From NCBI GenBank assembly GCA_016935525.1, contig JAFGQU010000013.1, positions 90,523 through 154,522 on the forward strand: 64,000 nt of DNA, in the 5' to 3' direction. A model generated the notes under the pieces. The model ran no database searches, was not told where the DNA came from, and saw nothing but the letters and a program-made list of their open reading frames with translations. Positions within the stretch are counted from its first letter, which is position 1; each line of letters starts with the position of its first letter. This stretch comes from Candidatus Omnitrophota bacterium (lineage in GTDB: Bacteria; Omnitrophota; Gorgyraeia; Duberdicusellales; 4484-171). Of this stretch, positions 16,790-63,587 are shown one piece after another. The position numbers and the translations under genes were made by a program.

Positions 16790-16791
16790 AA

Positions 16792-16823: not shown

Positions 16824-16880
16824 TGTCTCGAAAGATATTAGAGATGATCACTGTGTATAATCTTCAATCAAATTCAGAAT

Positions 16881-20958: not shown

Positions 20959-21018
20959 TCGTGAAGGAATGGCCGTAAAATAGATGGAAATACAGTCGCA
21001 ATACGATAGAAATGCATG

Positions 21019-21053: not shown

Positions 21054-21098
21054 GGAATTGAGCATATTTCTATGTATTTCAAATCATAGGAGAGATAT

Positions 21099-21821: not shown

Positions 21822-21843
21822 AAAGATTACAGTGATTTTAAAT

Positions 21844-21882
21844 CTGTGATCATCTGTGGTTATCATCAGCGATCATCAGTGC
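21844..21882. repeat. TGTGATCATCTG-type repeats (second locus)
   Basis: ctgtgatcatctgtggttatcatcagcgatcatcagtg. Confidence 0.65.
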
Positions 21883-21911
21883 ATGCCCGAAGGGCAACGT
21901 GTGACGAAGAT

Positions 21912-29055: not shown

Positions 29056-29850
29056 ATGATTTCTCAAAAGACGATTGAATATGGATTGCGCAAGGCAGGG
29101 TTGAAAAAAGGGGATACTGTTTTGGTCCACAGTTCATTGCGTAGCCTCGGGCCATTAGAAGGTGTCGATCCCGATGACCGTAATGGGTTTGTAAGCACGG
29201 TGTTTGCCGCGTTCTCCCGGATTTTAGGGTTACCTCGGCAGGGGACTTTAGTTGTGCCGACATTTACTCACGAGTACGCCCGTAATAATATCCCGTTTAT
29301 GTATGAAAAGAGCCCTTCGGAAGTGGGTTTATTCACCGAATACGTTCGTAAACAGAAAGGGGCGTACCGGTCGATGCATCCAATAAATTCGTTTTGTGCG
29401 ATCGGAAAGAAAAAACACGATATCTGTAAAGACGTGAGCATTTCCTGTTACGGATATAATTCTGTTTTTGATCGTCTTTATCAATTAGATGCAAAAATGA
29501 TGTTTTTCGGTTGCGGTATGTATCATATGACGTTGAAACATCATCTGGAGCAGATGGTGGCTTTACCTTATGTCTACACGAAAGCATATTTCACTCCGGT
29601 ATATAAGAATAACAAACCGGTAAAACTACCTTTTCTTGCGGTAGTACGGTATTTGAACGGGAGAGTCAACAACAACGATTGCCGGCAGTTTGAGCGTCAT
29701 CTAAAAAAGAAGAGAATGCTTACGAGTGTAGAAATCAGTAAAACGAAAATACTTCTTATGCGTATCCGTGACGCGTATGATCAAGGATATGAACTATTGC
29801 AGAAGAATCCCTGTTATTTTTTAAAAAAACCTTACTACACGACAAAATGA
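29056..29850 (+). CDS. AAC(3)-fold N-acetyltransferase-like protein
   Basis: LKKGDTVLVHSSLRSLGPLEG resembles the N-terminal motif of aminoglycoside 3-N-acetyltransferase-family proteins. In this locus it is a candidate amino-sugar N-acyltransferase. Confidence 0.55.
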   Translation: MISQKTIEYGLRKAGLKKGDTVLVHSSLRSLGPLEGVDPDDRNGFVSTVFAAFSRILGLPRQGTLVVPTFTHEYARNNIPFMYEKSPSEVGLFTEYVRKQKGAYRSMHPINSFCAIGKKKHDICKDVSISCYGYNSVFDRLYQLDAKMMFFGCGMYHMTLKHHLEQMVALPYVYTKAYFTPVYKNNKPVKLPFLAVVRYLNGRVNNNDCRQFERHLKKKRMLTSVEISKTKILLMRIRDAYDQGYELLQKNPCYFLKKPYYTTK

Positions 29851-30932
29851 AAAGCATTTTCATAACTGGGATGTTTCGTTCCGGGACGACACTATTAGCC
29901 AGAATGTTGGACGTGCATCCGGATGTCTCTGCCGTGTATCAGGTGATCACACCTTTTTTTCGGATGTGGCGGAATATTTTCCTTGGTGAATATGATTGTG
30001 AGAGGCTACTCCAGCTGCCGATGGGGAGTAATGTGTTATTCGATTTGGGATTATATGAAAAGTTCATCCAAGAAGCCTGGCGCGTTCGATTCGACGAAAA
30101 ACACATCTTACAGTTAAAAGAAGATCTATCGTGTGAATTGTATCGTGATGCTCATGAGAAACCGCTTTTAAAAAAAGGATTATTCGCTACGCTCACTCCC
30201 GGTGGTACGGTAGAAGATGTATTGATACAGCTTATCCGCTGTGTATATCCCGATATCGATGCACAAAAATATGTTGGGTTTAAAGAGATATGGTGTGAAG
30301 AGTTTATCCCGGTTTTACTTAAACTGTCTGAAGTCAAGTTTAATGCCATACAGATAATCCGTGATCCGAGAGGTGTATTTGCGTCACGCAATACCGGTAA
30401 TTATCTTAAAGAATGCGGCGGTAAACGGTATCCCTTATTGTTTATCGCCGAGACGTGGAATAGAAGTGCCGATATATTATTTCGTTGTAAGGATTTGGAC
30501 GGTTTCTTTCCAGTCCGTTACGAAGATATTGTTTCTTTTCCCAAAGAAACAATACAAAAGATCTGTGCATTTCTCGACATAGATTTTTATGATGATATGG
30601 CCAACCCGGAGAATTTTACCGATAGTAAGGGTAAACAGTGGAGGCCCAATACTACAGGAGACGATACTCGGCCCCGGTTTTTAAACAGTCAGACGAACTA
30701 TTGGAAAACCGCTTTAAATGATGAGGAAATCGGCAGTATCGAGTTTTTATGCGGCGAATCTATGGATACCCTGGGATACCAAAGAAAATTTACCCGTGAA
30801 CAGGCCCATCAATTATTCCTTCGATATCAAGAAGAAACTGATGAGATACATCCCTGGCTTGTCCCTTTGGGGTATGTATGTACAGCGGCCCGTAAAGAAA
30901 AAGAACTGGCAAAATTGGAACGTATTTCATGA
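29847..30932 (+). CDS. sulfotransferase-family protein
   Basis: The N-terminal 5'-PSB loop is IFITGMFRSGTTLLARML. A central RDPRG region gives a 3'-PB-like motif. Confidence 0.8.
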   Translation: MKSIFITGMFRSGTTLLARMLDVHPDVSAVYQVITPFFRMWRNIFLGEYDCERLLQLPMGSNVLFDLGLYEKFIQEAWRVRFDEKHILQLKEDLSCELYRDAHEKPLLKKGLFATLTPGGTVEDVLIQLIRCVYPDIDAQKYVGFKEIWCEEFIPVLLKLSEVKFNAIQIIRDPRGVFASRNTGNYLKECGGKRYPLLFIAETWNRSADILFRCKDLDGFFPVRYEDIVSFPKETIQKICAFLDIDFYDDMANPENFTDSKGKQWRPNTTGDDTRPRFLNSQTNYWKTALNDEEIGSIEFLCGESMDTLGYQRKFTREQAHQLFLRYQEETDEIHPWLVPLGYVCTAARKEKELAKLERIS

Positions 30933-31918
30933 AAGTAAATGTCGATCAATTCGCGTTAGATACCCGGATGAGAGGATTTTGGTGGCAATGGAAAAGAAGG
31001 TATCCGTTTTCGTTTATGCGTAATCGTATCGAATGGTACGCGTATCCTCAGTTTAAAGTCGTTCCGCGGTTCCCTTTACATGTGGATTTTGAGATCTCAT
31101 CTCTTTGTAATCTTCAGTGCCCGATGTGTTATCGTCCGCATCGTACCGATAGTAATGACGGGTTCATGGATTTAAATGCCTATAAACAGGGGGTCGACGA
31201 GTGCGCTAAATTCGATTTGTATTCGATCCGGTTAAGCTGGCGGGGAGAACCGACCATGCATTCGGATCTGGTCGAGATGGTCCGGTACGCCAAAGAAAAA
31301 GGGATAAAAGAAGTCTCGTTTATCACGAACGGTTTTAAACTGGATGAAAAACTCTCCCATGATCTCGTAACTGCCGGGATCGACTATTTTTCCGTATCGA
31401 TCGATGGAGTAGGCGAAAAATATAACGAGATCAGGTATCCGTCCCGGTTCGATGAGATGGTTAAACGTCTAAAGAATATGCGTGAGTTACGGGATACGAT
31501 CGGGGGGGGATATCCGCGGATACGGATCAACTCTATATGGAGCGCGATCAAAGACACTAAACAGGATTATTATAATACGTTTTCTCCGATCGTCGATTTT
31601 ATCACTGTTAATCCCGATTATGACCATTCGTTAAAAGATACCGGGATCGATCCCGACCATGTTTGTCAATATCTTTACCAGCGGTTGACCGTTATGTGGG
31701 ACGGTACGGTGCCGTTATGTATCTGTGATAAATCAAAAGAGGTAGTGTTAGGAAAGCTGGGTATCGATTCGTTATACGATATTTGGCATAGCTCGTTACT
31801 TAATAAGATGAGAGATCTGCAGAAACAGGGGCGGATAAGAGAGATAGTTCCCTGCACTAAATGTCAACGGTCGCTTACCGCGCAGATCGGAAACCAGAGG
31901 GACGTGAAGAAAAAATGA
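30929..31918 (+). CDS. radical SAM protein with C-terminal partial SPASM/twitch domain (paralog 1)
   Basis: CNLQCPMC is a CxxxCxxC motif. The C-terminus TVMWDGTVPLCICD ... CTKCQ gives a C-X12-G-X4-C first SPASM motif plus CxxC. Confidence 0.8.
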   Translation: MKVNVDQFALDTRMRGFWWQWKRRYPFSFMRNRIEWYAYPQFKVVPRFPLHVDFEISSLCNLQCPMCYRPHRTDSNDGFMDLNAYKQGVDECAKFDLYSIRLSWRGEPTMHSDLVEMVRYAKEKGIKEVSFITNGFKLDEKLSHDLVTAGIDYFSVSIDGVGEKYNEIRYPSRFDEMVKRLKNMRELRDTIGGGYPRIRINSIWSAIKDTKQDYYNTFSPIVDFITVNPDYDHSLKDTGIDPDHVCQYLYQRLTVMWDGTVPLCICDKSKEVVLGKLGIDSLYDIWHSSLLNKMRDLQKQGRIREIVPCTKCQRSLTAQIGNQRDVKKK

Positions 31919-32787
31919 AAACGATAATTATTGCTGAAATCGGTGAATGTTTTAACGGTGATATGGACCAGGCGAGAAAACTGATCGTGACCGCGAAAGC
32001 CGCCGGATGTGATTATGCCAAGTTTCAAACTTTGGATCGAGAAGGGATAGCCGAAGACGATCCGGAACGGGAATGGTTTTTGAAGGTAGCCCTTCAAAAA
32101 GAACAGTTAACACAACTGCAGAGTTGGTGCAGGGACGCGGGTATCGGGTTTCTCTGTACTCCGGAAAATAAGAAAAAAGCCGAAGAATTAAAAGAGCTGG
32201 GATGCCGGGAAGTAAAAATCGCCAGTACCTGTGCGTGGGATGATGAGTTGGTCTCTTATATATCGGAACATTTTTCCATCATTTTTGTATCGACCGGTTT
32301 ATCGACATTAGAAGAAGTCGATAAAGTCGTATCCCGTCTTAAAAAGCAGGAAAAAATATACCTTATGCATTGCGTATCGGAATATCCGACCGGCCCGTTA
32401 CTTACCCAACGGGGACTGCAGGCGTTATCTCATGAAAACGTGAATTTGCGGATGATGGATATCCTGAAAGAACGGTATCCCCATTGTGTAGTAGGGTATT
32501 CCGATCATACGGTGGATATAATAGTGCCGGTTGTCGCGGTTGCCCGGGGAGCGGGAGTGATCGAGAAACATATCACCCTGGATCGGAAAGGCCCGGTGAA
32601 TCTCTTCCTTTCCAAGCGCGGCTATAGCGGTACCGACCATGTGTTATCACTCGAGCCGGATGAGTTGAAAGAGATGGTCCGTCAGATAAGAGAAACCGAA
32701 AAAATATTAGGCGAAGCGGTCTGGCAGCGCAGTCCGGGAGAGAAGATCTTGATGGATTTTTTAAAAGGGCGGTTTTCTAATCCATGA
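31915..32787 (+). CDS. N-acetylneuraminate/pseudaminate synthase family (NeuB/PseI/SpsE-like) TIM-barrel protein, no SAF domain
   Basis: MKTIIIAEIGECFNGDMDQARKLIVTAKAAGCDYAKFQT matches the NeuB N-terminus (IAEIG-NHNG, AKFQ). At 290 aa it ends before the usual C-terminal SAF domain. Confidence 0.75.
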   Translation: MKTIIIAEIGECFNGDMDQARKLIVTAKAAGCDYAKFQTLDREGIAEDDPEREWFLKVALQKEQLTQLQSWCRDAGIGFLCTPENKKKAEELKELGCREVKIASTCAWDDELVSYISEHFSIIFVSTGLSTLEEVDKVVSRLKKQEKIYLMHCVSEYPTGPLLTQRGLQALSHENVNLRMMDILKERYPHCVVGYSDHTVDIIVPVVAVARGAGVIEKHITLDRKGPVNLFLSKRGYSGTDHVLSLEPDELKEMVRQIRETEKILGEAVWQRSPGEKILMDFLKGRFSNP

Positions 32788-33782
32788 AATATGTTTTTTT
32801 AACTCAAGGATCGCAGGCAGTCGGATACGGCCATGTATATGAGGCCCTCGCGATTGCCGAGACGTTATCTTCACCGGCTGATTTTATCTTGTTTGACTCT
32901 TCGGATATCGCCGAAACGATTGTGCGTCAAAAAGGGTATAACCGGATAAAAAGGCTAACTATGGATACGCTGGATACATGTGATATTTCCCGGGAGACGT
33001 GCGTGGTCTTAGACACCCGGTTGAACGATATCGTTCTCCAGAAGAAGATCCGCACACATGCCGGGAGACTCATCATGATCGATGAGTTAGGCGATAAAAA
33101 AGTCGATTGTGATGTCCTTATTAATTTCAGTATCTGTAAAGAATGGGTTTCTTCTTATCGTTACGAAAAAGAACCTCACTGTTTTTTCGGAGCACAATAC
33201 TATCCGTTACGCGAAGAATTTCTCTCTTTACCTAAAAAGGATAAGGGGCATCCGGTAAAAAGAGTGCTGATCAGCATGGGGGGAGCGGACCGGACACGGG
33301 CCACGTTAAAGATCGCCGAAAGTTGCGCATCGATAGAAGGCTGCGAATTTACTTATATCGTCGGCGGGGGATTTGAGTTTGGGTTAGACGAAATAAAAAC
33401 ATGTACCGGAAATAGAAAAAAACATCACATCATTAAAGATTCGTCCGATTTTGCCGGAATCTTAAATAGTCACGATATGATCATCACTGCCGGCGGAAAT
33501 ACGCTGTTCGAAGCCGCGTTTTGCGGGGTGCCGTCGCTGGTGGTATGGGAAGATGAACATGAACGGGTTCAGGGAGAAGCCTTTGAGCAATATGGAGTTG
33601 CTCGAGTGATAGGAAACGCCGGGGGATTTTCCGCTGAACAATTGCGAAATACGATAGAAAAAGTCCTGTCCAATCCTGCAGTACTGAAAAAAATGTCCGA
33701 TACCGGAAAGAAGCTGGTTGATGGAAACGGGTGTGAACGTATCACTCATATTTTAAGGGGAGTAAAAAATGTCAGTGTTTAA
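32784..33782 (+). CDS. PseG-like UDP-sugar hydrolase / GT28 C-terminal-domain family protein
   Basis: The N-terminus FLTQGSQAVGYGHVYEALAIAETL and the C-terminal GT-B half ITAGGNTLFEAAFCGVPSLVV resemble PseG (pseudaminic acid pathway UDP-sugar hydrolase). Confidence 0.6.
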   Translation: MKYVFLTQGSQAVGYGHVYEALAIAETLSSPADFILFDSSDIAETIVRQKGYNRIKRLTMDTLDTCDISRETCVVLDTRLNDIVLQKKIRTHAGRLIMIDELGDKKVDCDVLINFSICKEWVSSYRYEKEPHCFFGAQYYPLREEFLSLPKKDKGHPVKRVLISMGGADRTRATLKIAESCASIEGCEFTYIVGGGFEFGLDEIKTCTGNRKKHHIIKDSSDFAGILNSHDMIITAGGNTLFEAAFCGVPSLVVWEDEHERVQGEAFEQYGVARVIGNAGGFSAEQLRNTIEKVLSNPAVLKKMSDTGKKLVDGNGCERITHILRGVKNVSV

Positions 33783-34731
33783 TAAATATATGCAGACTTC
33801 TCAAGGGAAGCTGTTTGCCGATAAATATTGTAATGTTACCCCGGGAGAAAATGTCAGTTGCATACTCTGTGGTAGTCCTCAGGCGAAAGAGTGGTATCGT
33901 ATGGGTGATTTTATCAGTAAGATATGCCGGCGATGCGGATGCCGTTATGTTTCACCCCGGTTCAATGACGCTCAATTGGATGCTCATTACTCCGAAGATC
34001 TGTTTACCAAAAGTAAGGATTATGAAGGTGTTCGGCACAATATGCTTGATGAAAACGAACGTGCCCGTAAACGAAGCGATATGAAAGAAGAAATCCGGAC
34101 GACGATAGAACGCTGTCCTGACGGAGGGAAGGTCCTTGATATCGGTTGTCAGACCGGAATATACCTTCAAGCTCTTCCCGCATCTATAGAGAAATACGGG
34201 ATTGAACGAAGCCGCTGGGCCGCCGAACATACCCGCAAGATAACCGGTGCCGGGATACGGACCGGTAAGGTAGAAGACGGATATTTCGAACAGGGTTTTT
34301 TTGATGTGATCAATATGTCTTATGTCGTCGAGCATCTGCAGCATCCGCCGGTAATTATCAAGAAGATCGTCAGTTGGTTAAAACCGCAAGGAACGTTGAT
34401 CATATCGGTCCCTAATTTTGACAGTTTTTGCGCGAAGGTTTTCCGGGAGTTTTACCGGTTGGTCGAACCGCGTCAACATCTGTTTCTTACGACACCCGCT
34501 TCTCTACGGTATTTATTGGATCAAATGGGAGTGAAAATAGAGAAGATATATTATCCCTATTTCGGCACTTCCTATTGCCGTTTTTCAGAACAGTTCAGAC
34601 TTTTAACGAATATGATACGACGGATATGTCTGCCGGTTTTACTGAAAATAAACAAAGTTCCCGAAATACCGCGATTGATATCTCCGGCATTTTACGGGAA
34701 CATTATGACGGTAATCGCCAGGAAACGATGA
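33769..34731 (+). CDS. class I SAM-dependent methyltransferase with N-terminal Cys4 zinc ribbon
   Basis: CILCGS ... CRRCGC is an N-terminal zinc ribbon. VLDIGCQTGIYLQ is motif I. VVEHLQHP and LKPQGTLIISVPN are post-I motifs. Confidence 0.75.
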   Translation: MSVFNKYMQTSQGKLFADKYCNVTPGENVSCILCGSPQAKEWYRMGDFISKICRRCGCRYVSPRFNDAQLDAHYSEDLFTKSKDYEGVRHNMLDENERARKRSDMKEEIRTTIERCPDGGKVLDIGCQTGIYLQALPASIEKYGIERSRWAAEHTRKITGAGIRTGKVEDGYFEQGFFDVINMSYVVEHLQHPPVIIKKIVSWLKPQGTLIISVPNFDSFCAKVFREFYRLVEPRQHLFLTTPASLRYLLDQMGVKIEKIYYPYFGTSYCRFSEQFRLLTNMIRRICLPVLLKINKVPEIPRLISPAFYGNIMTVIARKR

Positions 34732-35579
34732 TGCAACTGGCTGCGACACAAGAAGATATGATCTATCAAGCCTATGTGCGTAAAAATGCGCCTATAGCCG
34801 GTACCGGGTATTTTATTTCTAAAGAAGCTCTCTTAAAACATGACACGTATGTCGTGCTTTATCATGCCGGAGAGCCGGTGCTCTTTTTCAGCAAATCTAC
34901 TATGCGCGATAAAGAAAAAACAATGCTTTCGAATTTCCTTATCTTAGCCGATGTATCTATTATAAAAACCCGTTCTTTATTAGAAGAATATATCAAGTCT
35001 CAGTCCGGACACTCATTTATCTGTGTGGTTGAAGAGTATCTTAAAGACGAATATGCGATGATAAATGACGGCCAATATGAAGTCGATCATATCGCGATCC
35101 GGATGTGGAATAAAGATGTGAGCCGATTCGCCTGTCCTGATCCTGAAAATATAACCATAGAACCGTTTCGGGTAGGGCATGATGAACAGCGGTTTGTGGA
35201 TATTTTTAATGAAACGTTTGTCGGATTATGTACACCGACGAATAAAGAAGAGGTGATCCGCTGGACTAAAGCTCCCGGCTTCTACCCGGACCTGTATCTC
35301 TTCGCGGTTAAAAACAAAAAAACTATCGGATTTATTGCCGTGGAAATCGATATCGATTCAGGGATAAGTTATCTGCAGGAGATCGGAGTCGGGAGAGAAG
35401 AACGTAACACTTCAGCCGCTGGGTTTTTAATCTGTACTGCTTACCGGTCAGTACGGGATAAAGGGGTTAAGTGTATGGGGGTCGGAGTACTCAAGCGTAA
35501 TGTGGGCGCGTATAAGTTTTTTTCTAAATGGGGATTTGAAGAGTTATATCGACGAATATTTTTGAGGAGGATCGTATGA
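34728..35579 (+). CDS. GNAT-like acyltransferase domain protein
   Basis: Start at ATG 34728, where its ATGA overlaps the methyltransferase stop. The 5' part of the six-frame ORF overlaps the methyltransferase in another frame and is rejected. The C-terminal FIAVEIDIDSGISYLQEIGVGREERN ... GVGVLKRNVGAYKFFSKWGF resembles GNAT motifs A and B. Confidence 0.45.
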   Translation: MMQLAATQEDMIYQAYVRKNAPIAGTGYFISKEALLKHDTYVVLYHAGEPVLFFSKSTMRDKEKTMLSNFLILADVSIIKTRSLLEEYIKSQSGHSFICVVEEYLKDEYAMINDGQYEVDHIAIRMWNKDVSRFACPDPENITIEPFRVGHDEQRFVDIFNETFVGLCTPTNKEEVIRWTKAPGFYPDLYLFAVKNKKTIGFIAVEIDIDSGISYLQEIGVGREERNTSAAGFLICTAYRSVRDKGVKCMGVGVLKRNVGAYKFFSKWGFEELYRRIFLRRIV

Positions 35580-37605: not shown

Positions 37606-37613
37606 AAAATAAT

Positions 37614-38483: not shown

Positions 38484-38486
38484 AAA

Positions 38487-40241: not shown

Positions 40242-40247
40242 TCAATT

Positions 40248-43702: not shown

Positions 43703-43718
43703 AAACAGGAGGAAAGTC

Positions 43719-44756: not shown

Positions 44757-44772
44757 TTTGTCTGGAGATAGT

Positions 44773-45549: not shown

Positions 45550-45612
45550 GATCGGATGTTTTAATGAACGAGTTTGTCTTAATCCCGTTTAGGCAAAAGG
45601 AGTGTATATCCC

Positions 45613-46554: not shown

Positions 46555-46558
46555 GCAT

Positions 46559-47458: not shown

Positions 47459-47475
47459 CAAGAAGGAGTATTTTT

Positions 47476-48285: not shown

Positions 48286-48287
48286 TT

Positions 48288-49304: not shown

Positions 49305-49313
49305 GGTCAAAGC

Positions 49314-52346: not shown

Positions 52347-52349
52347 AAT

Positions 52350-53480: not shown

Positions 53481-53509
53481 ATAGAGTTCTCGACGTTTAT
53501 GCGGTATTT

Positions 53510-56685: not shown

Positions 56686-56808
56686 GATTGTGTGTATTGG
56701 GTTTAATTATATGCCTTGCAAGTTTTGTAGGGTTCGGATAAACTTATACATAATAATAAAAATAATAAGGGATTATACAACATTTTCAGCTTATTGTCAG
56801 GGAAATAA

Positions 56809-57621
56809 ATGCCGAAAGCTCAAACTTTTTATGATCTAAGTCGTGATGCTCTTGTGATGGTGAGTAATAACGCTACGGCCAGGTATTGGGACCAACTCTG
56901 GCGTGATTCACAAAAAGATATCAAAAAAGCGGTTACTCAAAGATATAATTACATGCTCCGTAAATTTGTCCCCCGGTATCTATCTCAAGGCGCAAAAATA
57001 CTGGATGCTGGCTGCGGTGTGGGAGATAAAGTCTATATGTTGAAAAAGATGGGATACGATGCATATGGTGTTGATTTTGCCGAAGAAACAGTGAAAAGAG
57101 TTACTGCTTATTTTCCGGATATAAATATCAAGTGCGCGGATGTCCGGGGCCTATCTTTTCCCGATAAAATGTTTGATGCCTATCTCTCTTTCGGGGTTAT
57201 TGAACATTTTTTTGAAGGATATGGAGAAGTTATCGATGAGGCCCGCCGGGTCCTTTGTGATAAGGGGTATCTCTTTTTAGCTTTTCCCCATATTTCGCCA
57301 TTACGGCGTTGGAAAATACGATTCAATAGGTATTCTCACATAACCATGCCGGAACAGACTAAGGAAAAGTTCTATCAATTTTTTCTCAATGTGCCGGAAG
57401 TTATTCGAGAAGTTGAGTCAAAAGGATTTTCCGTTGTTTCGGTTTATCCGTTTGATGCCGTAAAGGGGTGGAAAGATGAGGTGTCTTTATTGAATCCGGC
57501 ATTTTCGTATATTTACAATTCTCAACATATTTTTTTAAAAGGTGTAAAGTTTTTTATCGACCGTTTGACTTCCTTCCTGGCCGGACATACCGTTTTAATC
57601 ATCTTCCAAAAAAATGTGTAA
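56809..57621 (+). CDS. class I SAM-dependent methyltransferase
   Basis: ILDAGCGVGDKVYML is motif I. SFGVIEHF and LCDKGYLFLAFP follow. Confidence 0.75.
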   Translation: MPKAQTFYDLSRDALVMVSNNATARYWDQLWRDSQKDIKKAVTQRYNYMLRKFVPRYLSQGAKILDAGCGVGDKVYMLKKMGYDAYGVDFAEETVKRVTAYFPDINIKCADVRGLSFPDKMFDAYLSFGVIEHFFEGYGEVIDEARRVLCDKGYLFLAFPHISPLRRWKIRFNRYSHITMPEQTKEKFYQFFLNVPEVIREVESKGFSVVSVYPFDAVKGWKDEVSLLNPAFSYIYNSQHIFLKGVKFFIDRLTSFLAGHTVLIIFQKNV

Positions 57622-58870
57622 TATCAAAGAGTGTACAGGTTTGCTGTTAAAGCGTGTTTTTAATTTCTTTTATATAAGTTTTTTAGTAAGTCAGCTTTGT
57701 CTGGCCAGCATATATATATATGATATCCCGTTGCGGGCGTATTTTATCGCTGCCGGTTTTATTGTGTGTGTGATCATGTTGATATTTTTTGAATCGGAAA
57801 GTATATGGAATAATGCCTATATCAGAAATATTTCTTTTTTGTTCATCGGTTTTGCTTTTTCCTCGTTTATGGCATTTCTCATATCAAGAGTGCTCTACGA
57901 TAATACGCTTAGTTTAAAAAGTTTTCTGTTTCTTCTCACCAGGTTTCTTATCCAATTGTGGATAGCATTTTTTATTTCAAGTTATTTTTTGAAACAAAAC
58001 GGGATTGTGCCTTTGCTTTGGTCGGTAATGCTTTACGCGGCTTTATCCGGCCTGGTCGCTTTTTTTCAATTTCTGGGTATTGAAACGTTCTGGAAGATGA
58101 AATTTTTGTTTACCACGGATCTAAATAAATATATTGTCACATTTATCACCAGCCATACTGATTCACAGCGAGCAGCCGGGTTGTCCCTTTATTTTATATC
58201 TTTGTCGTATGAGATGCTTTTATCATTACCGCTGGGTATATATCTTATAACCCGATCCGCAGGAAAGTGGCGGTGGTTAGCTGTTTTTTGTTCGATTATG
58301 ATATTATTAGGCCTGGTCGCTTCAAAAACGATGTCGGCATATCTTGCCCTTACAATAATGCTCCTTTTGTGGTTTTACGGTAAAGGGAAACGTAAAATTA
58401 CCATTTCCCTGATATTTTTAATTCTAATCGGCAGTTATATTTTTCGGGATCATTTTACTTTTTTGTTGGCCAGCCTCAAGGCGCGAATGGGATTCTGGCA
58501 GGTAGCGATAAAGACCTTTTTGAAATATCCGTTCGGGATCCCTTTTTTGCGTGAGTATGGCCGATATTCATCCCAGTTTTATTCGCCGGATCTACCTGAT
58601 ATTGTCGGTTCAGTTCCCCATAACCAGTTTTTAAATACCGTTATTTCTTATGGCCTGGGCGGGATCATTTGCCTGTTTTTGTTCTTTTTCCTGCTCTATA
58701 AAAGGGCTATGAAAATTCATGATAACCATTTGGCATTATTAATGGTTTGTGCTTTTTCCGGTTATTTTGTCCATTCTTTTTTTCATAATTTAGGGATGTT
58801 TTACAATGATGTATTCTTCTGGGTGTTCGCTGCCGTGTTTTTTGTCCAACCCGATCACAAAAATGGATAG
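57614..58870 (+). CDS. O-antigen polymerase/ligase-like (Wzy/O-antigen ligase family) polytopic membrane protein
   Basis: 418 aa with about 10-12 TM helices and a larger loop near residue 330. The call rests on its position among glycosyltransferases. Confidence 0.5.
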   Translation: MCNIKECTGLLLKRVFNFFYISFLVSQLCLASIYIYDIPLRAYFIAAGFIVCVIMLIFFESESIWNNAYIRNISFLFIGFAFSSFMAFLISRVLYDNTLSLKSFLFLLTRFLIQLWIAFFISSYFLKQNGIVPLLWSVMLYAALSGLVAFFQFLGIETFWKMKFLFTTDLNKYIVTFITSHTDSQRAAGLSLYFISLSYEMLLSLPLGIYLITRSAGKWRWLAVFCSIMILLGLVASKTMSAYLALTIMLLLWFYGKGKRKITISLIFLILIGSYIFRDHFTFLLASLKARMGFWQVAIKTFLKYPFGIPFLREYGRYSSQFYSPDLPDIVGSVPHNQFLNTVISYGLGGIICLFLFFFLLYKRAMKIHDNHLALLMVCAFSGYFVHSFFHNLGMFYNDVFFWVFAAVFFVQPDHKNG

Positions 58871-58972
58871 AGATCGTAACGATTGATAAAAAGCCCAGGC
58901 TCTTGAGTTGCCTTCGAGGGTGTTATATAATATGGAAGTTTTAATGATAAGAGGAGTTTTCAGGAAGAGTAT

Positions 58973-60061
58973 ATGAAAAATAAAAAAATACTTTTCTCTT
59001 TGGTCGCGATCATCGGGGGGCTACTTTTAACCCTATTGGTCATAGAGATAATCCTTCGAATATTGGGATTTGGTAACCTGGTCATATATCAATATGATAA
59101 AGATGTGTACTGGAAACCTAGACCGAATCAGCATTGTTTTACCAAAGAAGGGCATCAGCCGGTACAGATAAATCGTTTAGGCCTGCGCGGACAGGAAGTA
59201 TCTCTCGATAAACCGCAGGGTACTTTCAGGATCCTCTCATTAGGCGATTCCCGTACGTTCGGCTGGGGCGTAGCTGATAACCAGACTTATAGTTATATAC
59301 TACAGGAAGAACTGTCTAAACGTACCGGTAAAAATATCGAAGTATTGAATGCCGGTGTAAACGGATATTCATATCCGCAAATGTATGTTGTATTGCGCGA
59401 TATGGTAGATAAATTTGATATCGATGCGGTGATCGTCGGGAGCAGTAATTGGTGGTCATATTTCATCCCGGATGCCATGCTTGAATATAAACGAGCCTGG
59501 CAGAAAAAAATATTTCTTAAAAATATTGTCCGTAGATTCGCGATATACCATACTCTGGTAGAATTAAAATTAAGACAATATTATGTGCGCTGGAGGAAGA
59601 GATTTATCCCGGTTTCTCCGGAAGATGTTCCGAGTGTCTTAGACGAAACCGCTCCTTCCGTTTCGCCCAATGGTTCCAACAGAGAAAAATCATTAGATGG
59701 GATCCTTAATATCTATCAAGAAAAATCTCCGGCGTTTGCGACCTCATATGCGGTTGGTGAATACTATTTAAAAGAGATGGCAAAGCTAGCTACGGAAAAA
59801 AAGGTCCCTTGTGTTTTTCTATATATCCCGCATGAAAAGTCTAATGATAACTCGTTGCATCTGGTGATGAAGAGAAGAGTCGAGCAGGAATTTAAAGGAA
59901 ATGTCTTTGTTCTTGATTCTTCAAAAATACTGAACTCTCCTCAAATTTCCTATGGGAGTGTATTCCTCGAAGGCGATCGAGTCCATATGAATGCATATGG
60001 ACATGAAAAGTTGGCGGAATTTCTTGCCGGGCAGATAATAAACAGGAAGATTGTGTTCTGA
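58973..60061 (+). CDS. SGNH/GDSL-family hydrolase, membrane-anchored (second copy)
   Basis: N-terminal TM helix. ILSLGDSRTFGWGV is the GDS block, and DRVHMNAYGHEKLA at the C-terminus gives the DxxH block. Confidence 0.65.
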   Translation: MKNKKILFSLVAIIGGLLLTLLVIEIILRILGFGNLVIYQYDKDVYWKPRPNQHCFTKEGHQPVQINRLGLRGQEVSLDKPQGTFRILSLGDSRTFGWGVADNQTYSYILQEELSKRTGKNIEVLNAGVNGYSYPQMYVVLRDMVDKFDIDAVIVGSSNWWSYFIPDAMLEYKRAWQKKIFLKNIVRRFAIYHTLVELKLRQYYVRWRKRFIPVSPEDVPSVLDETAPSVSPNGSNREKSLDGILNIYQEKSPAFATSYAVGEYYLKEMAKLATEKKVPCVFLYIPHEKSNDNSLHLVMKRRVEQEFKGNVFVLDSSKILNSPQISYGSVFLEGDRVHMNAYGHEKLAEFLAGQIINRKIVF

Positions 60062-60063
60062 TT

Positions 60064-60864
60064 ATGAGTGATCTGAAGAAGGAAGCGACTTTTCTTTGTT
60101 CATTCCATAAAACCGATTCGCTGTTTTATGAAATGATAGATAGTCTTTTAAAACAATCTTACGAAAATTTCAAAGTGATCTTAGTAAATGATATCGGGCA
60201 ACCAGTAACTTTTGATTCCCGGTATCAAACCGATAACCGGGTTGCCCTATTGCATAATCCTTCTAATCAGGGATTGATACATTCTCTTAATAGAGGGGTC
60301 GTCGATATTGATTCCGAATATATCGCTCGGGTTGATCGCGGGGATATATGTCTTCCGGAAAGGTTAAAAGAACAGGTCGAGTATCTTGAAAAAAACGACC
60401 TTGATATAGTAGGCAGTTATGTCGAAGAAATAGATGAAGCTGGTAAAATTTTACGGATTGTCAAGCCTCCATTAGAGCACAGTAAAATCGTTACCGCATT
60501 GGAAAGATATAATTGTCTTGTCCATTCTTCGATTTTAATGAAGACAGAAGTCATAAAAAAACTTGGAGGCTACAACGAACGCTTCCAATATGCCCAGGAT
60601 TATGATCTGTATCTGCGGGCGATACGGGCTGGGTGTCGATTCGGTGTAGTCGATAAAATCCTTACCCGGCGCCGGGTCTATCGGGATTCGACTACACGTA
60701 AGAAACGGAAGCAACAGATACTTTATGCGTCAGCAGCTTTAATGATGTATTATGCCGCAGAGGAGAGGCTAACCGGTACCCATATTCTTCGAGTGTGTGC
60801 CCATCTTAGCAAGATCCTTATCCCGCAGTGGATGCGTTCTATGCGGAACCGGCCGATATCATGA
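60064..60864 (+). CDS. glycosyltransferase family 2-like
   Basis: FKVILVNDIG is a GT2 DxD-region-like motif. The ED/QxxRW-like region is YAQDYDLYLRA. Confidence 0.6.
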   Translation: MSDLKKEATFLCSFHKTDSLFYEMIDSLLKQSYENFKVILVNDIGQPVTFDSRYQTDNRVALLHNPSNQGLIHSLNRGVVDIDSEYIARVDRGDICLPERLKEQVEYLEKNDLDIVGSYVEEIDEAGKILRIVKPPLEHSKIVTALERYNCLVHSSILMKTEVIKKLGGYNERFQYAQDYDLYLRAIRAGCRFGVVDKILTRRRVYRDSTTRKKRKQQILYASAALMMYYAAEERLTGTHILRVCAHLSKILIPQWMRSMRNRPIS

Positions 60865-61982
60865 ATATCTATGTGATCGGTACCCGAGGTGTCCCCGGAT
60901 TGCAGGGAGGAGTCGAGAAGCATTGTGAACAGCTTTATCCGCTTCTTGTCGAAAAGGGATGTGCTGTTACCGTATTCGCCCGTACCCCTTATTTCTGCAA
61001 AGAGAAACGGTTGACACAATGGCGGGGGATTGAACTTCGTTATCTGTGGACTATACGGCAAAAGCATCTTGAGGCTATAATCCATTCGTTCCTAGCGGTA
61101 TTTGTCAGTATCATCCGGAAGCCGGATATCGTGTGTATCCATAATATCGGGCCGGCGATCTGGAGTCCATTACTGAAACTGTTCGGTATAAAAACAGTTC
61201 TTACCTATCACAGTGCTAATTATGAACATCAAAAGTGGGGGGCCGTTGCAAAAAAGGTGTTACGGTTTGCTGAATGGGTAAGCGTGCGTTGTACCGACGG
61301 CATTATATGTGTTTCTCAGGATACACAAAGAAGGATATCAGATAAATATCCGGATAAAAAGATCGACGCTATCCCTAATGGTGTTGCTGTCTGTGAGATG
61401 ATTCAGCCTCCGGAAAGTATATTAGAAAGGTATGGGTTGAACAGGAAACAATTCGTATTAGTAGTGGGTCGATTCACTCCGGAAAAAGGTATATATGATA
61501 TCCTTTGTGCGTTTGAGGGGTTAAAAGAAAACAGCTATAAACTGGTCATTGTCGGTGAGAGCGATTATGATTGTAAATATAGTCGGAAGATCAAAGATAA
61601 AGCACGAAATATTTCCCATGTCATTTTGACCGGAATGTTAAGTCATGAGGATCTTATTCCGTTATATGCGACGGCCGCTCTTTTTGTTATCCCTTCCTAT
61701 AATGAAGGGTTCCCGCTGGTCCTTTTGGAAGCATTAGTGAATGGGTGTCCGGTATTGGCCAGTGAGGTACTTAAAGATAAAGGGATCCCGCTTAGGGATT
61801 ACCGGTATTTTCACACCGGTGATATTGCTCATTTGACGGAAAAAATGGCTGAATTGCTGCGCCAGGATATTGATTCGTCTGAATCGGTCCGGTATAAGGA
61901 TTTTGTACGATCTCACTTTGACTGGAATGATATTGCCGAAAAAACAGTCCGGTTCTATCATGAAGTCGCATCCGGACAATAG
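60861..61982 (+). CDS. glycosyltransferase family 4 with DUF1972-type N-terminus
   Basis: The N-terminus MNIYVIGTRGVPGLQGGVEKH and the C-terminal EX7E block EGFPLVLLEALVNGCPVLAS support the call. The start overlaps the GT2 stop as ATGA. Confidence 0.8.
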   Translation: MNIYVIGTRGVPGLQGGVEKHCEQLYPLLVEKGCAVTVFARTPYFCKEKRLTQWRGIELRYLWTIRQKHLEAIIHSFLAVFVSIIRKPDIVCIHNIGPAIWSPLLKLFGIKTVLTYHSANYEHQKWGAVAKKVLRFAEWVSVRCTDGIICVSQDTQRRISDKYPDKKIDAIPNGVAVCEMIQPPESILERYGLNRKQFVLVVGRFTPEKGIYDILCAFEGLKENSYKLVIVGESDYDCKYSRKIKDKARNISHVILTGMLSHEDLIPLYATAALFVIPSYNEGFPLVLLEALVNGCPVLASEVLKDKGIPLRDYRYFHTGDIAHLTEKMAELLRQDIDSSESVRYKDFVRSHFDWNDIAEKTVRFYHEVASGQ

Positions 61983-62052
61983 AGGGAAAATGTTGATATA
62001 TTGCTCAAATAAATATACACTATATTAAAAGAACAGAGAGATAAAACCGGTT

Positions 62053-63465
62053 ATGATCCGTCCCACACGTAAAATATATCCGATTTATTTTTTTATTGAT
62101 GTATTCTTTATTACGCTCAGTTTTTTCTTATCTTATTTTTTTAAATATAATACCGTTGAAAGTCTTTTTACCACTATGCGGTTCCCTTACCTGCAACGGT
62201 ATCTTTTTATCTTTTTTTTGTGGACATTATTCATCGTTGTTTCGTTTCGCAGAAGGAACCTCTATTCGACCGACCGCGGTTTGAGTATTCCGAAAGAAAC
62301 TGTCCGGGTCATAGTAAGTATTTTCTATACGAGTGTGTTAATATCGTCGATAATATTTTTTGCTCAATATAAATTCTTTTCCCGCCAGATCTTTAGCCAT
62401 AGTTTTCTTTTTTTATGTATTTCGTTAAGTGTATGGCGGATCATAAAACGGTTGATCATCCGCGATCTGGTCGCCCGCGGATATCATAATATCAACGTGC
62501 TGATTGTTGGCGCCGGGAAGGTAGGGAAGATTGTCCTTGATGAGATACAAAAAGTCCCCTGGTGGGGGTTCCGCGTGGTGGGGGTGCTTGACGATAAAAA
62601 AGATGAGGATTTTAACGGGGTGTCGGTTCTGGGAAAAATAAGTGACTTTGAAATGGTGGTAAAACAGTATTTCGTCGATGAAGTGATCATCACTATCCCT
62701 TCGGAGAAACAGATCGTATCTCAACTTATCGAGAAAGTGAAAGCCATGCATCTGGGATTGGGGATAGTGCCTGAAAATTTTGAAGGGCCGTTAATGATCC
62801 TTAATGTCAATTATCTGGGGATTATGCCGTTATTGACTTACAAAGAACGTAAATATCATCCTACCGCTCTTGCGCTTAAACGGTTGTTTGATTTTACCGT
62901 TTCGTTCATATCGCTTCTTATCGGCCTTCCGTTGTATATTATCATCGCCTGTGTGATCAAATTCGATTCTCCCGGGCCGGTATTCTACCGGCAGAAACGG
63001 GCGGGACTTAAAGGGAAACCGTTTAAAGTGTATAAGTTCCGTTCGATGGTCAAAGATGCCGATAAGATGAAAGAAGAATTACTTGAAAAGAACGAAGTGT
63101 GCGATGGGGTCATTTTTAAGATCAAAGAAGATCCCCGGATAACCAAGGTGGGCCGTTTCCTGCGGCGGTATAGCCTTGATGAGTTTCCTCAGTTATTTAA
63201 TGTGTTAAAAGGGGATATGAGCCTTATCGGGCCGCGGCCGCCTACATTTGATGAAGTCGAAAAGTATAATTATATTCAGATGCAGCGGCTTTCGATACGG
63301 CCCGGGATTACCGGGCTTTCTCAGGTAAAAGGGCGCAGTACTCTTACTTTCCGCCGTTGGGTAAAGTGGGATCTCTGGTATGTGAATAACTGGTCATTCG
63401 GGCTGGATCTACGTATTTTATGGTGGACCATACCGGCAGTGATCAAAGGACAGGGCGCTTATTGA
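62053..63465 (+). CDS. polyprenyl-phosphate sugar phosphotransferase (WbaP/EpsB-type bacterial sugar transferase, initiating enzyme)
   Basis: Four to five N-terminal TM helices and a central Rossmann-like VLIVGAGKVG. The C-terminal bacterial sugar transferase domain carries KFRSM, DELPQLFNVLKGDMSLIGPRP and PGITGLSQV. Confidence 0.85.
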   Translation: MIRPTRKIYPIYFFIDVFFITLSFFLSYFFKYNTVESLFTTMRFPYLQRYLFIFFLWTLFIVVSFRRRNLYSTDRGLSIPKETVRVIVSIFYTSVLISSIIFFAQYKFFSRQIFSHSFLFLCISLSVWRIIKRLIIRDLVARGYHNINVLIVGAGKVGKIVLDEIQKVPWWGFRVVGVLDDKKDEDFNGVSVLGKISDFEMVVKQYFVDEVIITIPSEKQIVSQLIEKVKAMHLGLGIVPENFEGPLMILNVNYLGIMPLLTYKERKYHPTALALKRLFDFTVSFISLLIGLPLYIIIACVIKFDSPGPVFYRQKRAGLKGKPFKVYKFRSMVKDADKMKEELLEKNEVCDGVIFKIKEDPRITKVGRFLRRYSLDEFPQLFNVLKGDMSLIGPRPPTFDEVEKYNYIQMQRLSIRPGITGLSQVKGRSTLTFRRWVKWDLWYVNNWSFGLDLRILWWTIPAVIKGQGAY

Positions 63466-63587
63466 AGATTCCCTCTTTTTTTAGCCAGCTTTTTAAAACG
63501 ATTGATAATCGTTCTCTTATCCTTCCTGTTTCTCTTTCCCGGTTCACATTATCTATTGCTGTTTTTATCATCGTCTCGGCAAGTTTT

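Follow-up and report, generated by a model that had tools for sequence, protein, structure and literature searches.

Radical SAM enzymes that resemble BtrN are probably sugar-tailoring proteins of a surface-glycan locus in Candidatus Omnitrophica

In a MAG of Candidatus Omnitrophica, we found a tightly packed glycan locus that includes four radical SAM genes, which we will term g03, g08, g12, and g18. We propose, with a probability of roughly 60%, that this locus makes a lipid-linked surface glycan that contains a divergent nonulosonic acid, and that the four BtrN-like enzymes act on sugar intermediates and not on peptides. Coordinates are positions in the window (the whole stretch of DNA that was analyzed, 64,000 nucleotides), and features are on the + strand except for g27.

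The four proteins (g03, 30929-31918, 329 amino acids; g08, 35576-36580, 334 amino acids; g12, 40248-41162, 304 amino acids; and g18, 45613-46554, 313 amino acids, or 293 from the annotated start at 45673) all match Pfam's Radical_SAM and SPASM models above the gathering score and all contain the CxxxCxxC motif, as the original prediction stated. Beyond this motif, the alignment of the four has only four invariant cysteines, all C-terminal, which leaves room for one auxiliary cluster in each protein. In the alignment, each of these cysteines pairs with a different auxiliary-cluster ligand of BtrN (C169, C187, C232, and C235), so these are twitch enzymes and not full SPASM enzymes (the twitch domain and the mechanism with a cysteine as hydrogen donor are defined in PMC9477430 and PMC13012085). 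This agrees with the truncated C-terminus that had been predicted. g08 has exactly seven conserved cysteines, g03 has seven ligand cysteines and a conserved C92, and g12 has a CC pair; g18 has the invariant C256 next to C255, which is the cluster ligand. The four had also been described as clear paralogs, which is true of g12 and g18 (42% identity) but not of the remaining pairs: these are 24-27% identical, and g03, g08, and g12/g18 belong to separate orthologous clades. None of the curated NCBIfam families matched any of the four proteins at its cut-off.

The best relative in PDB of all four proteins, by sequence, is BtrN (18-25% identity), a dehydrogenase of a sugar-like aminocyclitol. BtrN was the top hit in PDB for profiles of the g18 clade (2e-23) and the g03 clade (2e-15), and it came first among solved structures when g03 and g08 were used as single queries. 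BtrN also resembles the structure models for g03 and g18 (pLDDT 89 and 90), with TMt of 0.70-0.72, and BlsE and BtrN head the Foldseek list for g18. The RiPP maturases SuiB, SkfB, and CteB rank about level with the sugar enzymes in the fold searches, so the fold has no power to tell substrates apart. By sequence similarity and the positions of the cysteines, the four proteins are BtrN-like twitch enzymes.

g03 and g08 lie within a module of PIG-L, WbqC, NeuB, PseG-like, and CMP-transferase genes that recurs across phyla. In particular, NeuB, PIG-L, and WbqC were present in all six of the g03-clade contexts that we examined. In the window, this region holds a DegT/PseC/LegC-like sugar aminotransferase (25013-26026; Pfam; 150 bits for NCBIfam's PseC model vs. 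a cut-off of 423), an NAD-dependent LegB/RmlB-like sugar-nucleotide 4,6-dehydratase/epimerase (26023-26979; Pfam, NCBIfam), and a PIG-L family de-N-acetylase (26976-27644; Pfam; kept in the related loci L084, L085, and L087-L089). These are followed by a CMP-sugar-acid cytidylyltransferase (27635-28345; Pfam CTP_transf_3), which aligns with the N-terminal region of the spiro-SPASM model (NCBIfam TIGR04321, positions 18-220, 44.9 bits), and by a WbqC-like protein (28351-29046; Pfam, 229 bits). Next come the AAC(3)-like N-acetyltransferase g01 (29056-29850; Pfam Antibiotic_NAT), in whose place the relatives' loci have a carbamoyltransferase; the NeuB-family nonulosonic acid synthase g04 (31915-32787, with the maximal ORF starting at 31861; Pfam NeuB, 201 bits); the PseG-like nucleotide-sugar hydrolase g05 (32784-33782; Pfam; NCBIfam PseG, 126 bits vs. 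a cut-off of 153.6); and the GNAT N-acyltransferase g07 (34728-35579; Pfam; the maximal ORF starts at 34428 and the L084 homolog has 282 amino acids), which may have a PseH-like role. All of the nonulosonic-acid genes score below the NCBIfam equivalog cut-offs. Finally, g10 (37614-38483), which is conserved in synteny and has weak similarity to MptE-like/DUF115 proteins (the best match, 8e-6, is in a Scalindua homolog), is a candidate for the nonulosonic-acid transferase. The original prediction had overlooked g01, g04, and g05 and the link to nonulosonic-acid biosynthesis.

g18 has a different setting, as it is paired with the GT1-type glycosyltransferase g19 (46559-47458; Pfam). Of 20 distinct g18-clade loci, 17 have a g19-type glycosyltransferase no more than 10 kb away, and in 16 the two genes are immediate neighbors. 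Other parts of this cassette are the GT-B-like protein g22 (49314-50291; a homolog has a weak Glycos_transf_1 match), found in 14 of the 20 loci, and the GT1-type glycosyltransferase g23 (50288-51268; Pfam), found in 15. The 124 ORFs that neighbor g18-clade enzymes include 29 GT1, 24 class I methyltransferases, and 5 GT2.

Radical SAM proteins of this kind had been described as uncommon in O-antigen/EPS-type loci, which was overstated. A search with the radical SAM profile gave 3,492 clusters (50% identity, E ≤ 1e-30), and the same modules are carried by Planctomycetota, Omnitrophota, Elusimicrobia, Nitrospirae, Desulfobacterota, Methylomirabilota, SAR324, and one gammaproteobacterial symbiont. 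Orthologs also occur in a Pseudodesulfovibrio sp. (NZ_CP182342.1) that can be cultured. The arrangement is found again in many phyla, for the most part anaerobic, and this conserved synteny excludes a chance grouping of the genes. In relatives, the fusion partners of the radical SAM enzymes are GT2 plus cupin, hexapeptide acyltransferase, and cytidylyltransferase domains. For distant family members (22-34% identity; Bacteroidales and Melainabacteria), we did not find a glycan context, so the function cannot be transferred over the whole family.

An alternative is that these enzymes modify a peptide, as the RiPP maturases with a similar fold do. However, as the original prediction stated, no ORF in the island fits a precursor peptide and Pfam finds no peptidase domain in the fused ABC exporter g11 (38487-40241; Pfam; the best half-transporter in PDB is MsbA, 5e-67). 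The island also lacks an RRE domain. A carbohydrate substrate is well supported and is the best reading, given the kinship to BtrN, the glycosyltransferase and methyltransferase genes around g18, the NeuB modules that accompany g03-clade enzymes in all six contexts examined, and the domain fusions. A second possibility, also raised in the original prediction, is radical C-methylation. We found no indication of this: the four proteins are not radical SAM methylases of the class A-C types, and genes for B12-binding radical SAM proteins are absent from the window, though present in related loci. Nor did we find any indication that a lipid-linked glycan is the substrate of the radical SAM enzymes themselves. 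Finally, the island contains no sulfatase.

The original prediction placed the island at 29056-63465 (~35 kb), which is too narrow: the glycan genes begin at about 18.7 kb and extend at least 6.7 kb past the end of the window. An HTH_24 regulator (18656-19069; Pfam, tblastn) lies before the island, and its homolog precedes the matching module in L084 and L087. The upstream part comprises a PAPS-supply module, GDP-sugar genes, and the divergent nonulosonic-acid pathway. The GDP-sugar genes encode a GDP-mannose 4,6-dehydratase (23168-24193; Pfam GDP_Man_Dehyd, 447 bits) and an RmlD-like 4-keto reductase that is probably a GDP-6-deoxyhexose synthase (24159-25016; Pfam, weak NCBIfam match). The genes are tightly packed (the widest intergenic gap is 123 nt), but they are not a pure + strand block with mostly ATGA overlaps: g27 is on the - strand, and of 32 junctions, 4-nt overlaps account for just 7 with maximal ORFs or at most 11 with alternative starts.

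The PAPS-supply module, which had also been overlooked, includes a bifunctional ATP sulfurylase/APS kinase (18994-20958; Pfam ATP-sulfurylase, APS_kinase, and PUA_2), a further APS kinase that also carries a DUF2061 domain (21099-21821; Pfam), and a CysQ-like phosphatase of the Inositol_P family (21846-22769; Pfam) that presumably clears 3'-phosphoadenosine-5'-phosphate, the by-product of sulfotransferases. As predicted, there are two sulfotransferases, g02 (29847-30932; Pfam Sulfotransfer_3 and Sulfotransfer_1) and g14 (41938-42780; Pfam). We found Pfam support for eight methyltransferases, not the nine or more that had been claimed. These are g06 (33769-34731) and g15 (42713-43702), which are class I and have the predicted Cys4 ribbons (by motif; N-terminal in g06); the FkbM methyltransferase g16 (43719-44756); and the class I enzymes g13 (41159-41941), g17 (44605-45549, with the true start probably downstream, near 44773), g20 (47476-48285), g27 (55726-56685), and g28 (56809-57621). 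The CE4 polysaccharide deacetylase g21 (48207-49304, probable start 48288; Pfam) and a single GNAT, g07, are as predicted. The two supposed SGNH acyl-esterases, g09 (36577-37605) and g30 (58973-60061), are SGNH/GDSL-like proteins with a GDS block and an N-terminal anchor (in g09, a membrane anchor), but their model matches are weak (to NCBIfam for g09). The tailoring enzymes are all predicted to be soluble.

The predicted assembly genes are present as well: the glycosyltransferases g19, g23, g25 (GT4, 52350-53480), g31 (GT2, 60064-60864), and g32 (GT4, 60861-61982), the last three by Pfam, to which g22 (GT-B-like) and g05 (PseG-like) can be added; the polytopic Wzy_C protein g29 of the O-antigen ligase/polymerase family (57614-58870; 31.6 bits in Pfam vs. 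a cut-off of 31.7, a precomputed match, and at least nine TM-like segments); and the WbaP/PglC-type polyprenyl-phosphate sugar phosphotransferase g33 (62053-63465; Pfam Bac_transf, 235 bits). Two conserved or anchored proteins have no assigned function: g24 (51210-52346), which has no Pfam or NCBIfam match of its own but might be an alpha/alpha toroid, as its homologs match Prenyltrans weakly, and the membrane-anchored g26 (53510-55753; annotated as 705 amino acids from 53636).

We propose that the island makes its glycan, heavily O-methylated and sulfated, on a lipid in the cytoplasm. The 4,6-dehydratase, aminotransferase, PIG-L, N-acyltransferase, PseG-like, NeuB, and CMP-transferase proteins encoded beside g03 and g08 would make the nonulosonic acid, and g03, g08, and probably g12 would tailor it or its nucleotide-sugar precursors; g18 would partner the adjoining g19 within their widely conserved glycosyltransferase/methyltransferase cassette. 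Each radical SAM enzyme would hold two [4Fe-4S] clusters, one that cleaves SAM and an auxiliary one with four cysteine ligands, and the 5'-deoxyadenosyl radical would take hydrogen from a carbinol carbon of the sugar. By analogy, the chemistry may be hydroxyl oxidation or epimerisation. In enzymes like g08, with seven cysteines, the auxiliary cluster would oxidise the substrate radical to give a keto sugar, as in BtrN, which could then undergo transamination, reduction, or elimination. Alternatively, an extra conserved cysteine would quench the radical from the opposite face to give an epimer, as modelled on NeoN (Cys249; PMC10991966) and EpeE. From their positions in the alignment, C256 in g18 and g12 and C92 in g03 are candidates for this hydrogen donor.

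g33 would prime the glycan on polyprenyl phosphate, and the glycosyltransferases would then elongate it. The eight methyltransferases and two sulfotransferases would decorate it, with PAPS supplied by the genes upstream. The MsbA/PglK-class exporter g11 would flip it across the membrane, and g29 would then transfer or polymerise it. The glycan may end up in LPS, on protein, or as EPS. We found no literature on such radical SAM sugar chemistry in this type of pathway. Radical remodelling of sugars would be a step so far undescribed for this kind of pathway.

The gene island at 29056-63465 contains 33 ORFs of at least 260 aa, with intergenic gaps of at most 123 nt. The original prediction of a single plus-strand block holds for 32 of these ORFs; the exception is the methyltransferase g27, which is on the minus strand. 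The genes were also expected to be joined mostly by ATGA overlaps, but seven junctions are 4-nt overlaps, or at most 11 of 32 if alternative starts are used. Pfam and NCBIfam scans agree with the original prediction on two sulfotransferases (g02 and g14), a CE4 deacetylase (g21), a GNAT (g07), a fused ABC exporter of the ABC_membrane type without a peptidase domain (g11), and a Bac_transf priming transferase (g33, 235 bits). The two SGNH esterases (g09 and g30) and the Wzy-like protein (g29) are present as well, although the SGNH-like proteins, which have the GDS block, match their models weakly, and g29 is a borderline Wzy_C protein (31.6 bits vs. a cut-off of 31.7, with a precomputed match also). 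We counted eight methyltransferases rather than the expected nine or more. Also, the original gene list missed an AAC(3)-like acetyltransferase (g01), NeuB (g04), and a PseG-like protein (g05), all of which were found in the scans. The glycosyltransferases are g19 and g23 (GT1), g25 and g32 (GT4), and g31 (GT2).

The original boundaries were too narrow: genes of the same block start further 5′ and run past the window end. Upstream of 29056, one operon-like block encodes an HTH regulator, a PAPS-supply module (18994-22769: an ATP sulfurylase/APS kinase fusion, a second APS kinase with DUF2061, and a CysQ-like phosphatase), GDP-mannose 4,6-dehydratase, a reductase, a PseC/LegC-like aminotransferase, a 4,6-dehydratase/epimerase, a PIG-L deacetylase, a CMP-sugar-acid cytidylyltransferase, and a WbqC-like protein. 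At the other end, 52053-64000 is matched at 100% identity by a second contig of this genome, on which the island runs on with genes for VanZ, an MBL-fold protein, a second Wzy_C protein, a GT2, another SGNH-like protein, and a carbamoyltransferase (11368-18225 of the fetched locus, L086). Given the 5′ block and this continuation, the island spans at least 52 kb. Because a complete PAPS-supply module lies directly upstream, the two sulfotransferases are probably functional. No tRNA genes were found at the island borders. Housekeeping genes such as mreBC, PBP2, rodA, and lgt occupy the stretch before ~17 kb. (Among these, and outside of the island, are two radical SAM genes that are unrelated to the four, one of the Radical_SAM_N2 type at 5343-6983 and one of the Radical_SAM_C type at 11920-12861.) A 406-aa protein just before the HTH regulator (17193-18413) has a PEP-CTERM sorting signal and could either be glycosylated or be associated with EPS. 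The G+C content is 35.5-37% at 36001-40000 (g09-g11) vs. 43-47% in the housekeeping part, which is compatible with horizontal exchange of that segment.

By prediction, all of the tailoring enzymes are soluble, while g09, g26, and g30 have one predicted N-terminal anchor and g11, g29, and g33 are predicted to be polytopic. The membrane-anchored protein g26 (53510-55753; its maximal ORF has 747 aa and its annotated form 705 aa) did not match any Pfam or NCBIfam model and had no homolog in the fetched loci outside of its own genome. Another protein, g24 (51210-52346, 378 aa), is conserved and has no family match; two of its homologs weakly match a prenyltransferase alpha/alpha-toroid model, and a homolog accompanies g18 in 8 of the 20 loci discussed below. 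We considered from a motif that g24 might be LanC-like, but the candidate histidine is not kept in the window copy. A 51-aa ORF with five cysteines (56684-56839) lies in the sole divergent intergenic region, between g27 and g28. We rejected it as a precursor peptide: it is not conserved outside of the same genome and is probably spurious.

All four of the radical SAM proteins (g03, 30929-31918; g08, 35576-36580; g12, 40248-41162; and g18, 45613-46554, whose publicly annotated start is 20 codons downstream of the maximal-ORF start) match both the Radical_SAM and the SPASM models of Pfam. As originally predicted, they contain CxxxCxxC (at residues 60, 46, 31, and 34), which is 93-99% conserved within clades, and their scores for PF04055 (52-68 bits vs. 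a cut-off of 29.5) place them in the radical SAM superfamily. Scores for curated NCBIfam families all stay well short of the cut-offs; the highest are for TIGR04317 (88-121 bits vs. 380). The four had been described as clearly paralogous, which fits g12 and g18 (42% identity), but every other pair is at 24-27% identity. All four are old paralogs and fall into at least three subfamilies.

Besides CxxxCxxC, only four cysteines are invariant across all four proteins, and all of these are in the C-terminal domain. The g08 clade conserves exactly these seven cysteines. The g18/g12 clade has an additional invariant cysteine, C256, which is beside the ligand C255, and the g03 clade has an additional C92 (in 97% of members). 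A full SPASM domain has 7-8 C-terminal cysteines and two auxiliary clusters, while we find four conserved C-terminal cysteines, or five in the g18 clade. (The SPASM model of Pfam still matches because it spans the part that is shared with twitch.) A twitch domain has one C-terminal auxiliary [4Fe-4S] site with 3-4 cysteine ligands (PMC9477430, PMC13012085). By these published definitions, the four proteins are predicted to be twitch enzymes of the BtrN type and not full SPASM enzymes, in agreement with the truncated C-terminus that was originally noted. Fold searches confirm the SPASM/twitch fold but cannot tell enzymes that act on sugars from those that act on peptides. A profile for the whole family matches 3,492 clusters (at 50% identity) with E ≤ 1e-30. 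Among the library proteins, P0315, P0316, and P0318 are giant proteins (1431-1927 aa) in which six g18-related stretches were matched, and P0346 and P0320 have three radical SAM stretches each by Pfam scan.

The best solved sequence relative of g03, g08, g12, and g18 is BtrN, the 2-deoxy-scyllo-inosamine dehydrogenase of butirosin synthesis (PDB 4M7T). In profile searches of the PDB, BtrN was first for both the g18 clade (E = 2e-23; next match, 3e-12) and the g03 clade (E = 2e-15; next match, 4e-10), and it was on top in single-sequence searches with g03 and g08. BtrN has the same radical SAM plus twitch build, and in the printed profile alignments the four C-terminal cysteines fall, position for position, on its auxiliary-cluster ligands (C169, C187, C232, and C235). 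Furthermore, BtrN is a small soluble enzyme, its substrate is sugar-like, and aminotransferase and PIG-L-type genes lie alongside, as in the island. However, identity to BtrN is only 18-25%, the island proteins are 50-80 residues longer, and BtrN lacks the extra conserved cysteines of the g18/g12 and g03 clades (C256 aligns with Phe188 of BtrN). Also, BtrN belongs to the 2-deoxystreptamine pathway, while the setting of the island proteins is nonulosonic acid and lipid-linked glycan synthesis. Given the low identity and that neither 2-deoxy-scyllo-inosose synthase nor 2-deoxystreptamine pathway genes were found in the window, the four proteins do not qualify as BtrN orthologs.

Other radical SAM enzymes that tailor sugars or aminosugars (BlsE, DesII, NeoN, HygY, and SpeY) all belong to antibiotic biosynthesis in actinomycetes or Bacillus. 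The fold of g18 is matched best by BlsE, and the members of this group that were compared are less similar in sequence to the island proteins than BtrN is. In NeoN, the non-ligand Cys249 donates hydrogen for epimerization (PMC10991966), and both this residue and Cys223 of EpeE are precedents for a hydrogen-donor cysteine (PMC10991966, PMC13012085). By analogy with NeoN, the invariant C256 could be such a donor.

Cytidylyltransferase/radical SAM fusions were seen in related loci. In Pseudodesulfovibrio, a 576-aa protein (1308-3038 of locus L085) combines cytidylyltransferase-like and radical SAM/SPASM domains, and the spiro-SPASM model of NCBIfam (TIGR04321) has the same build. From end to end, g12 and g18 align with the C-terminal half of this model (80.1 and 72.4 bits), and its N-terminal half aligns with a separate cytidylyltransferase gene in the window (27635-28345). 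As the two halves are two genes in the window and neither score reaches the cut-off of 250 bits, g12 and g18 are not spiro-SPASM proteins themselves. Fused forms related to spiro-SPASM were defined from spirochaetes, and the family is uncharacterized; we found no mention of it in the literature that we searched. Other fusions in the family are to a hexapeptide acyltransferase, to a histidine phosphatase, and to a GT2 plus a cupin. Except for the histidine phosphatase, the fusion partners are sugar-nucleotide or glycan enzymes.

The original prediction suggested looking for the same gene order in other genomes, and we found g18-clade enzymes in 20 loci, most of them with a g19-type gene, and the module around g03 in all six contexts examined. 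The 20 distinct g18-clade loci (41-62% identity) were obtained by a scan of species-representative genomes and by homolog look-ups, and they are from Scalindua, Omnitrophota, Elusimicrobia, Nitrospirae, Desulfobacterales, Pseudodesulfovibrio, Methylomirabilota, Vicinamibacterales, Victivallales, and SAR324. A GT1 of the g19 type is within 10 kb in 17 of the 20 loci and is directly adjacent on the same strand in 16. Homologs of the glycosyltransferases g23 (15 loci), g25 (12 loci), and g31 (11 loci), the GT-B-like protein g22 (14 loci), and the methyltransferase g28 (9 loci) also recur. The 124 ORFs that neighbor g18-clade enzymes in 13 of these loci include 29 GT1, 24 class I methyltransferases, 5 GT2, 5 further radical SAM proteins, 3 ABC exporters, and 3 cytidylyltransferases, and four of the ORFs carry a B12-binding domain. 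In contrast, homologs at 22-34% identity (from Bacteroidales, Melainabacteria, and Bacilli; loci L024-L083) have only housekeeping neighbors, such as HPPK, DXP synthase, or OmpA; we found no glycan genes beside them and no neighbors in common with the window, and we set them aside as evidence. Thus, the association with glycan genes is a property of these clades and not of the whole family, which is functionally mixed.

Homologs of g03 and g08 are found together on the same contigs. We examined six contexts for the g03 clade: the window, a 205-kb ENA contig, Pseudodesulfovibrio, Scalindua japonica, a delta-proteobacterial symbiont of Olavius, and a gammaproteobacterial symbiont. In all six, PIG-L, WbqC, NeuB, and a PseG-like gene surround the g03-clade enzyme. 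As a rule, a carbamoyltransferase, a cytidylyltransferase, and another one or two twitch radical SAM genes are also there, and a B12-binding radical SAM gene is frequent. The 205-kb contig keeps the gene order of the window from APS kinase through the sulfotransferase g14. The B12-binding radical SAM proteins are candidate C-methylases (L003, 3975-5363; L085, 15880-17082; L087, 9375-10715; and L089, 10009-11535); no such gene was found in the window.

The enzyme types for a nonulosonic acid are contiguous in the island: a 4,6-dehydratase, an aminotransferase, an N-acyltransferase, a PseG-like hydrolase, a NeuB-type synthase, and a CMP-transferase. All of the enzyme types of PseBCHGIF/LegBCHGIF are represented, but every gene scores below its equivalog cut-off in NCBIfam (NeuB, 199.7 bits vs. 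399.7; PseI, 151.9 vs. 340; PseG, 126 vs. 153.6; PseC, 150 vs. 423.5; PseF, 27.9 vs. 205.7), so by homology the island appears to hold a complete but divergent pathway. Beyond the Pse/Leg set, the module contains PIG-L, WbqC, two or three twitch radical SAM enzymes, and either an AAC(3)-like enzyme or a carbamoyltransferase. To our knowledge, no described nonulosonic-acid pathway uses twitch radical SAM enzymes. Nothing in the literature that we searched combined nonulosonic acids with radical SAM, or radical SAM/SPASM with polysaccharides; other queries gave RiPP or unrelated papers.

For assembly and export, the island resembles the pathways of Campylobacter PglK and Helicobacter Wzk/WaaL, in which lipid-linked glycans depend on an ABC flippase. 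The shared elements are a priming phosphotransferase, cytoplasmic glycosyltransferases, a half-transporter of the MsbA/PglK class, and a Wzy_C protein. In the window, these would be g33, the glycosyltransferases, g11 (5e-67 to MsbA in a PDB sequence search), and the borderline g29, and none of the window ORFs that we scanned matched the Pfam models for Polysacc_synt/Wzx. We also consider g10 to be a candidate sugar-acid transferase, as its family gives repeated weak matches to MptE-like/DUF115 proteins. (Neither g10 nor g29 has a sequence relative in the PDB.)

The most far-reaching reading, with a probability of roughly 0.3, is that the PIG-L/WbqC/NeuB/PseG-like module and its two or three twitch radical SAM enzymes (plus a B12-dependent radical SAM enzyme in relatives) make an undescribed class of nine-carbon sugar acid, whose stereochemistry or carbon skeleton is reshaped by radical chemistry, and that the g18-g19 couple adds an unusual residue to a methylated core glycan that at least eight phyla, mostly anaerobic, have in common. 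If so, no earlier case of a radical SAM step would be known from the biosynthesis of nonulosonic acids or surface glycans. More generally, we consider it more likely than not that the four enzymes remodel sugars for a surface glycan. Given the predicted solubility of all of the tailoring enzymes, the cytoplasm is our proposed site for the radical, methyl, and sulfo steps, whose substrates would be nucleotide-activated sugars or the polyprenyl-linked glycan as it grows. There, g03, g08, and probably g12 would modify the nonulosonic acid or its precursors, while g18 would act immediately before or after the glycosyltransferase g19. If these enzymes work like BtrN, then the 5′-deoxyadenosyl radical would take the carbinol hydrogen and an electron would pass to the auxiliary cluster, to give a keto sugar. 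Alternatively, the extra conserved cysteine (C256 or C92) may return hydrogen from the opposite face, to give an epimer. The finished lipid-linked glycan would be flipped by g11, and the Wzy_C protein would then transfer or polymerize it.

A second possibility is that the substrate is a sugar but the chemistry is different: decarboxylation (as in BlsE), deamination or dehydration (as in DesII or AprD4), or nucleotide dehydration (as in viperin, with CTP or a CMP-sugar). This seems unlikely because BtrN is ahead of the next profile match by about 5 orders of magnitude for the g03 clade and about 11 for the g18 clade, and its lead over BlsE, DesII, and viperin is larger still. Also, viperin and DesII do not have the four-cysteine auxiliary cluster that is conserved here.

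Third, the island could make a secreted aminoglycoside-like compound or another oligosaccharide natural product, with the radical SAM enzymes in roles like those of BtrN or NeoN. This is conceivable because several enzyme types are common to the island and to aminoglycoside pathways (BtrN-like, DegT aminotransferase, BtrD-like PIG-L, AAC(3)-like, and ABC exporter); the carbamoyltransferases of related loci are TobZ-like, which is also a type found in aminoglycoside clusters. However, it is improbable: 2-deoxy-scyllo-inosose synthase is absent from the window, and the cassette is kept in many phyla as a core envelope-type locus. We favor a cell-surface glycan over a secreted product, given this wide conservation and the presence of a polyprenyl-phosphate priming transferase, Wzy_C proteins, NeuB, and a CMP-transferase.

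Fourth, the radical SAM proteins could be RiPP maturases that introduce thioether, C-C, or epimer modifications into a ribosomal peptide, which g11 would export. Indeed, the Pfam SPASM domain is found in all four proteins, their folds match SuiB, SkfB, CteB, and EpeE about as well as sugar enzymes, and the ABC_membrane type of exporter is common in many RiPP clusters. Nevertheless, this explanation is very unlikely and already largely refuted. As originally predicted, there is no precursor peptide in the island: the gaps leave no room for one, and the few small ORFs are not conserved. No RRE or PqqD-like domain was matched in the four proteins and their N-terminal extensions are only 30-59 aa, g11 lacks a peptidase domain, the conserved cysteines suffice for only one auxiliary cluster, and the neighbors in other phyla are glycosyltransferases, methyltransferases, and NeuB. 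Finally, it is no more plausible that these are sulfatase-maturating enzymes of the anaerobic type, or that they mature some other protein or a cofactor (e.g., as TIGR04317-like proteins) for an island enzyme, as all of the scores are far below the cut-offs, TIGR03942 (anSME) is absent from the 25 best NCBIfam matches of each protein, anSMEs have a full SPASM domain with two auxiliary clusters, no sulfatase domain was found in the window ORFs that we scanned (nor a tungsten or molybdenum enzyme gene in the window), and the sulfur genes of the island supply PAPS for the sulfotransferases; the single predicted auxiliary cluster and the missing sulfatase gene together exclude the sulfatase-maturase role.

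We return to radical tailoring of a surface glycan. We know of no gene cluster that has been linked to the S-layer glycan of Kuenenia or to the EPS of anaerobic sludge. The O-glycan of the S-layer of Kuenenia stuttgartiensis, an anammox bacterium, is short, with several O-methyl groups and a deoxyhexose (PMC5088730). The EPS of anaerobic granular sludge is sialylated (with nonulosonic acids) and sulfated (PMC10483923). Scalindua, which is also an anammox genus, has both the g18 cassette and the g03 module. These glycans are chemical precedents from similar organisms, and their tie to the island is only a lead.

The island is an ordinary kind of locus; what is new is the conserved use of several BtrN-like radical enzymes within it. 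Nonulosonic acids and methylated or sulfated glycans shape the dealings of bacteria with hosts, phages, and biofilm matrices, and all of the biosynthetic steps that we know of for these sugars use ordinary two-electron chemistry. As the modules are present in organisms that can be cultured or enriched (Pseudodesulfovibrio, with orthologs at 195-216 kb of NZ_CP182342.1, and Scalindua) and fused relatives are found in spirochaetes, the idea is open to experiment. If it is true, then a radical step in such pathways would offer new reactions to carbohydrate enzymology, and the genes would be markers for the sialic-acid-like and sulfated polymers that are now turning up in anaerobic sludge and anammox communities. 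Conserved oxygen-sensitive radical enzymes in these pathways would also help to explain the diversity of surface sugars in anaerobes.
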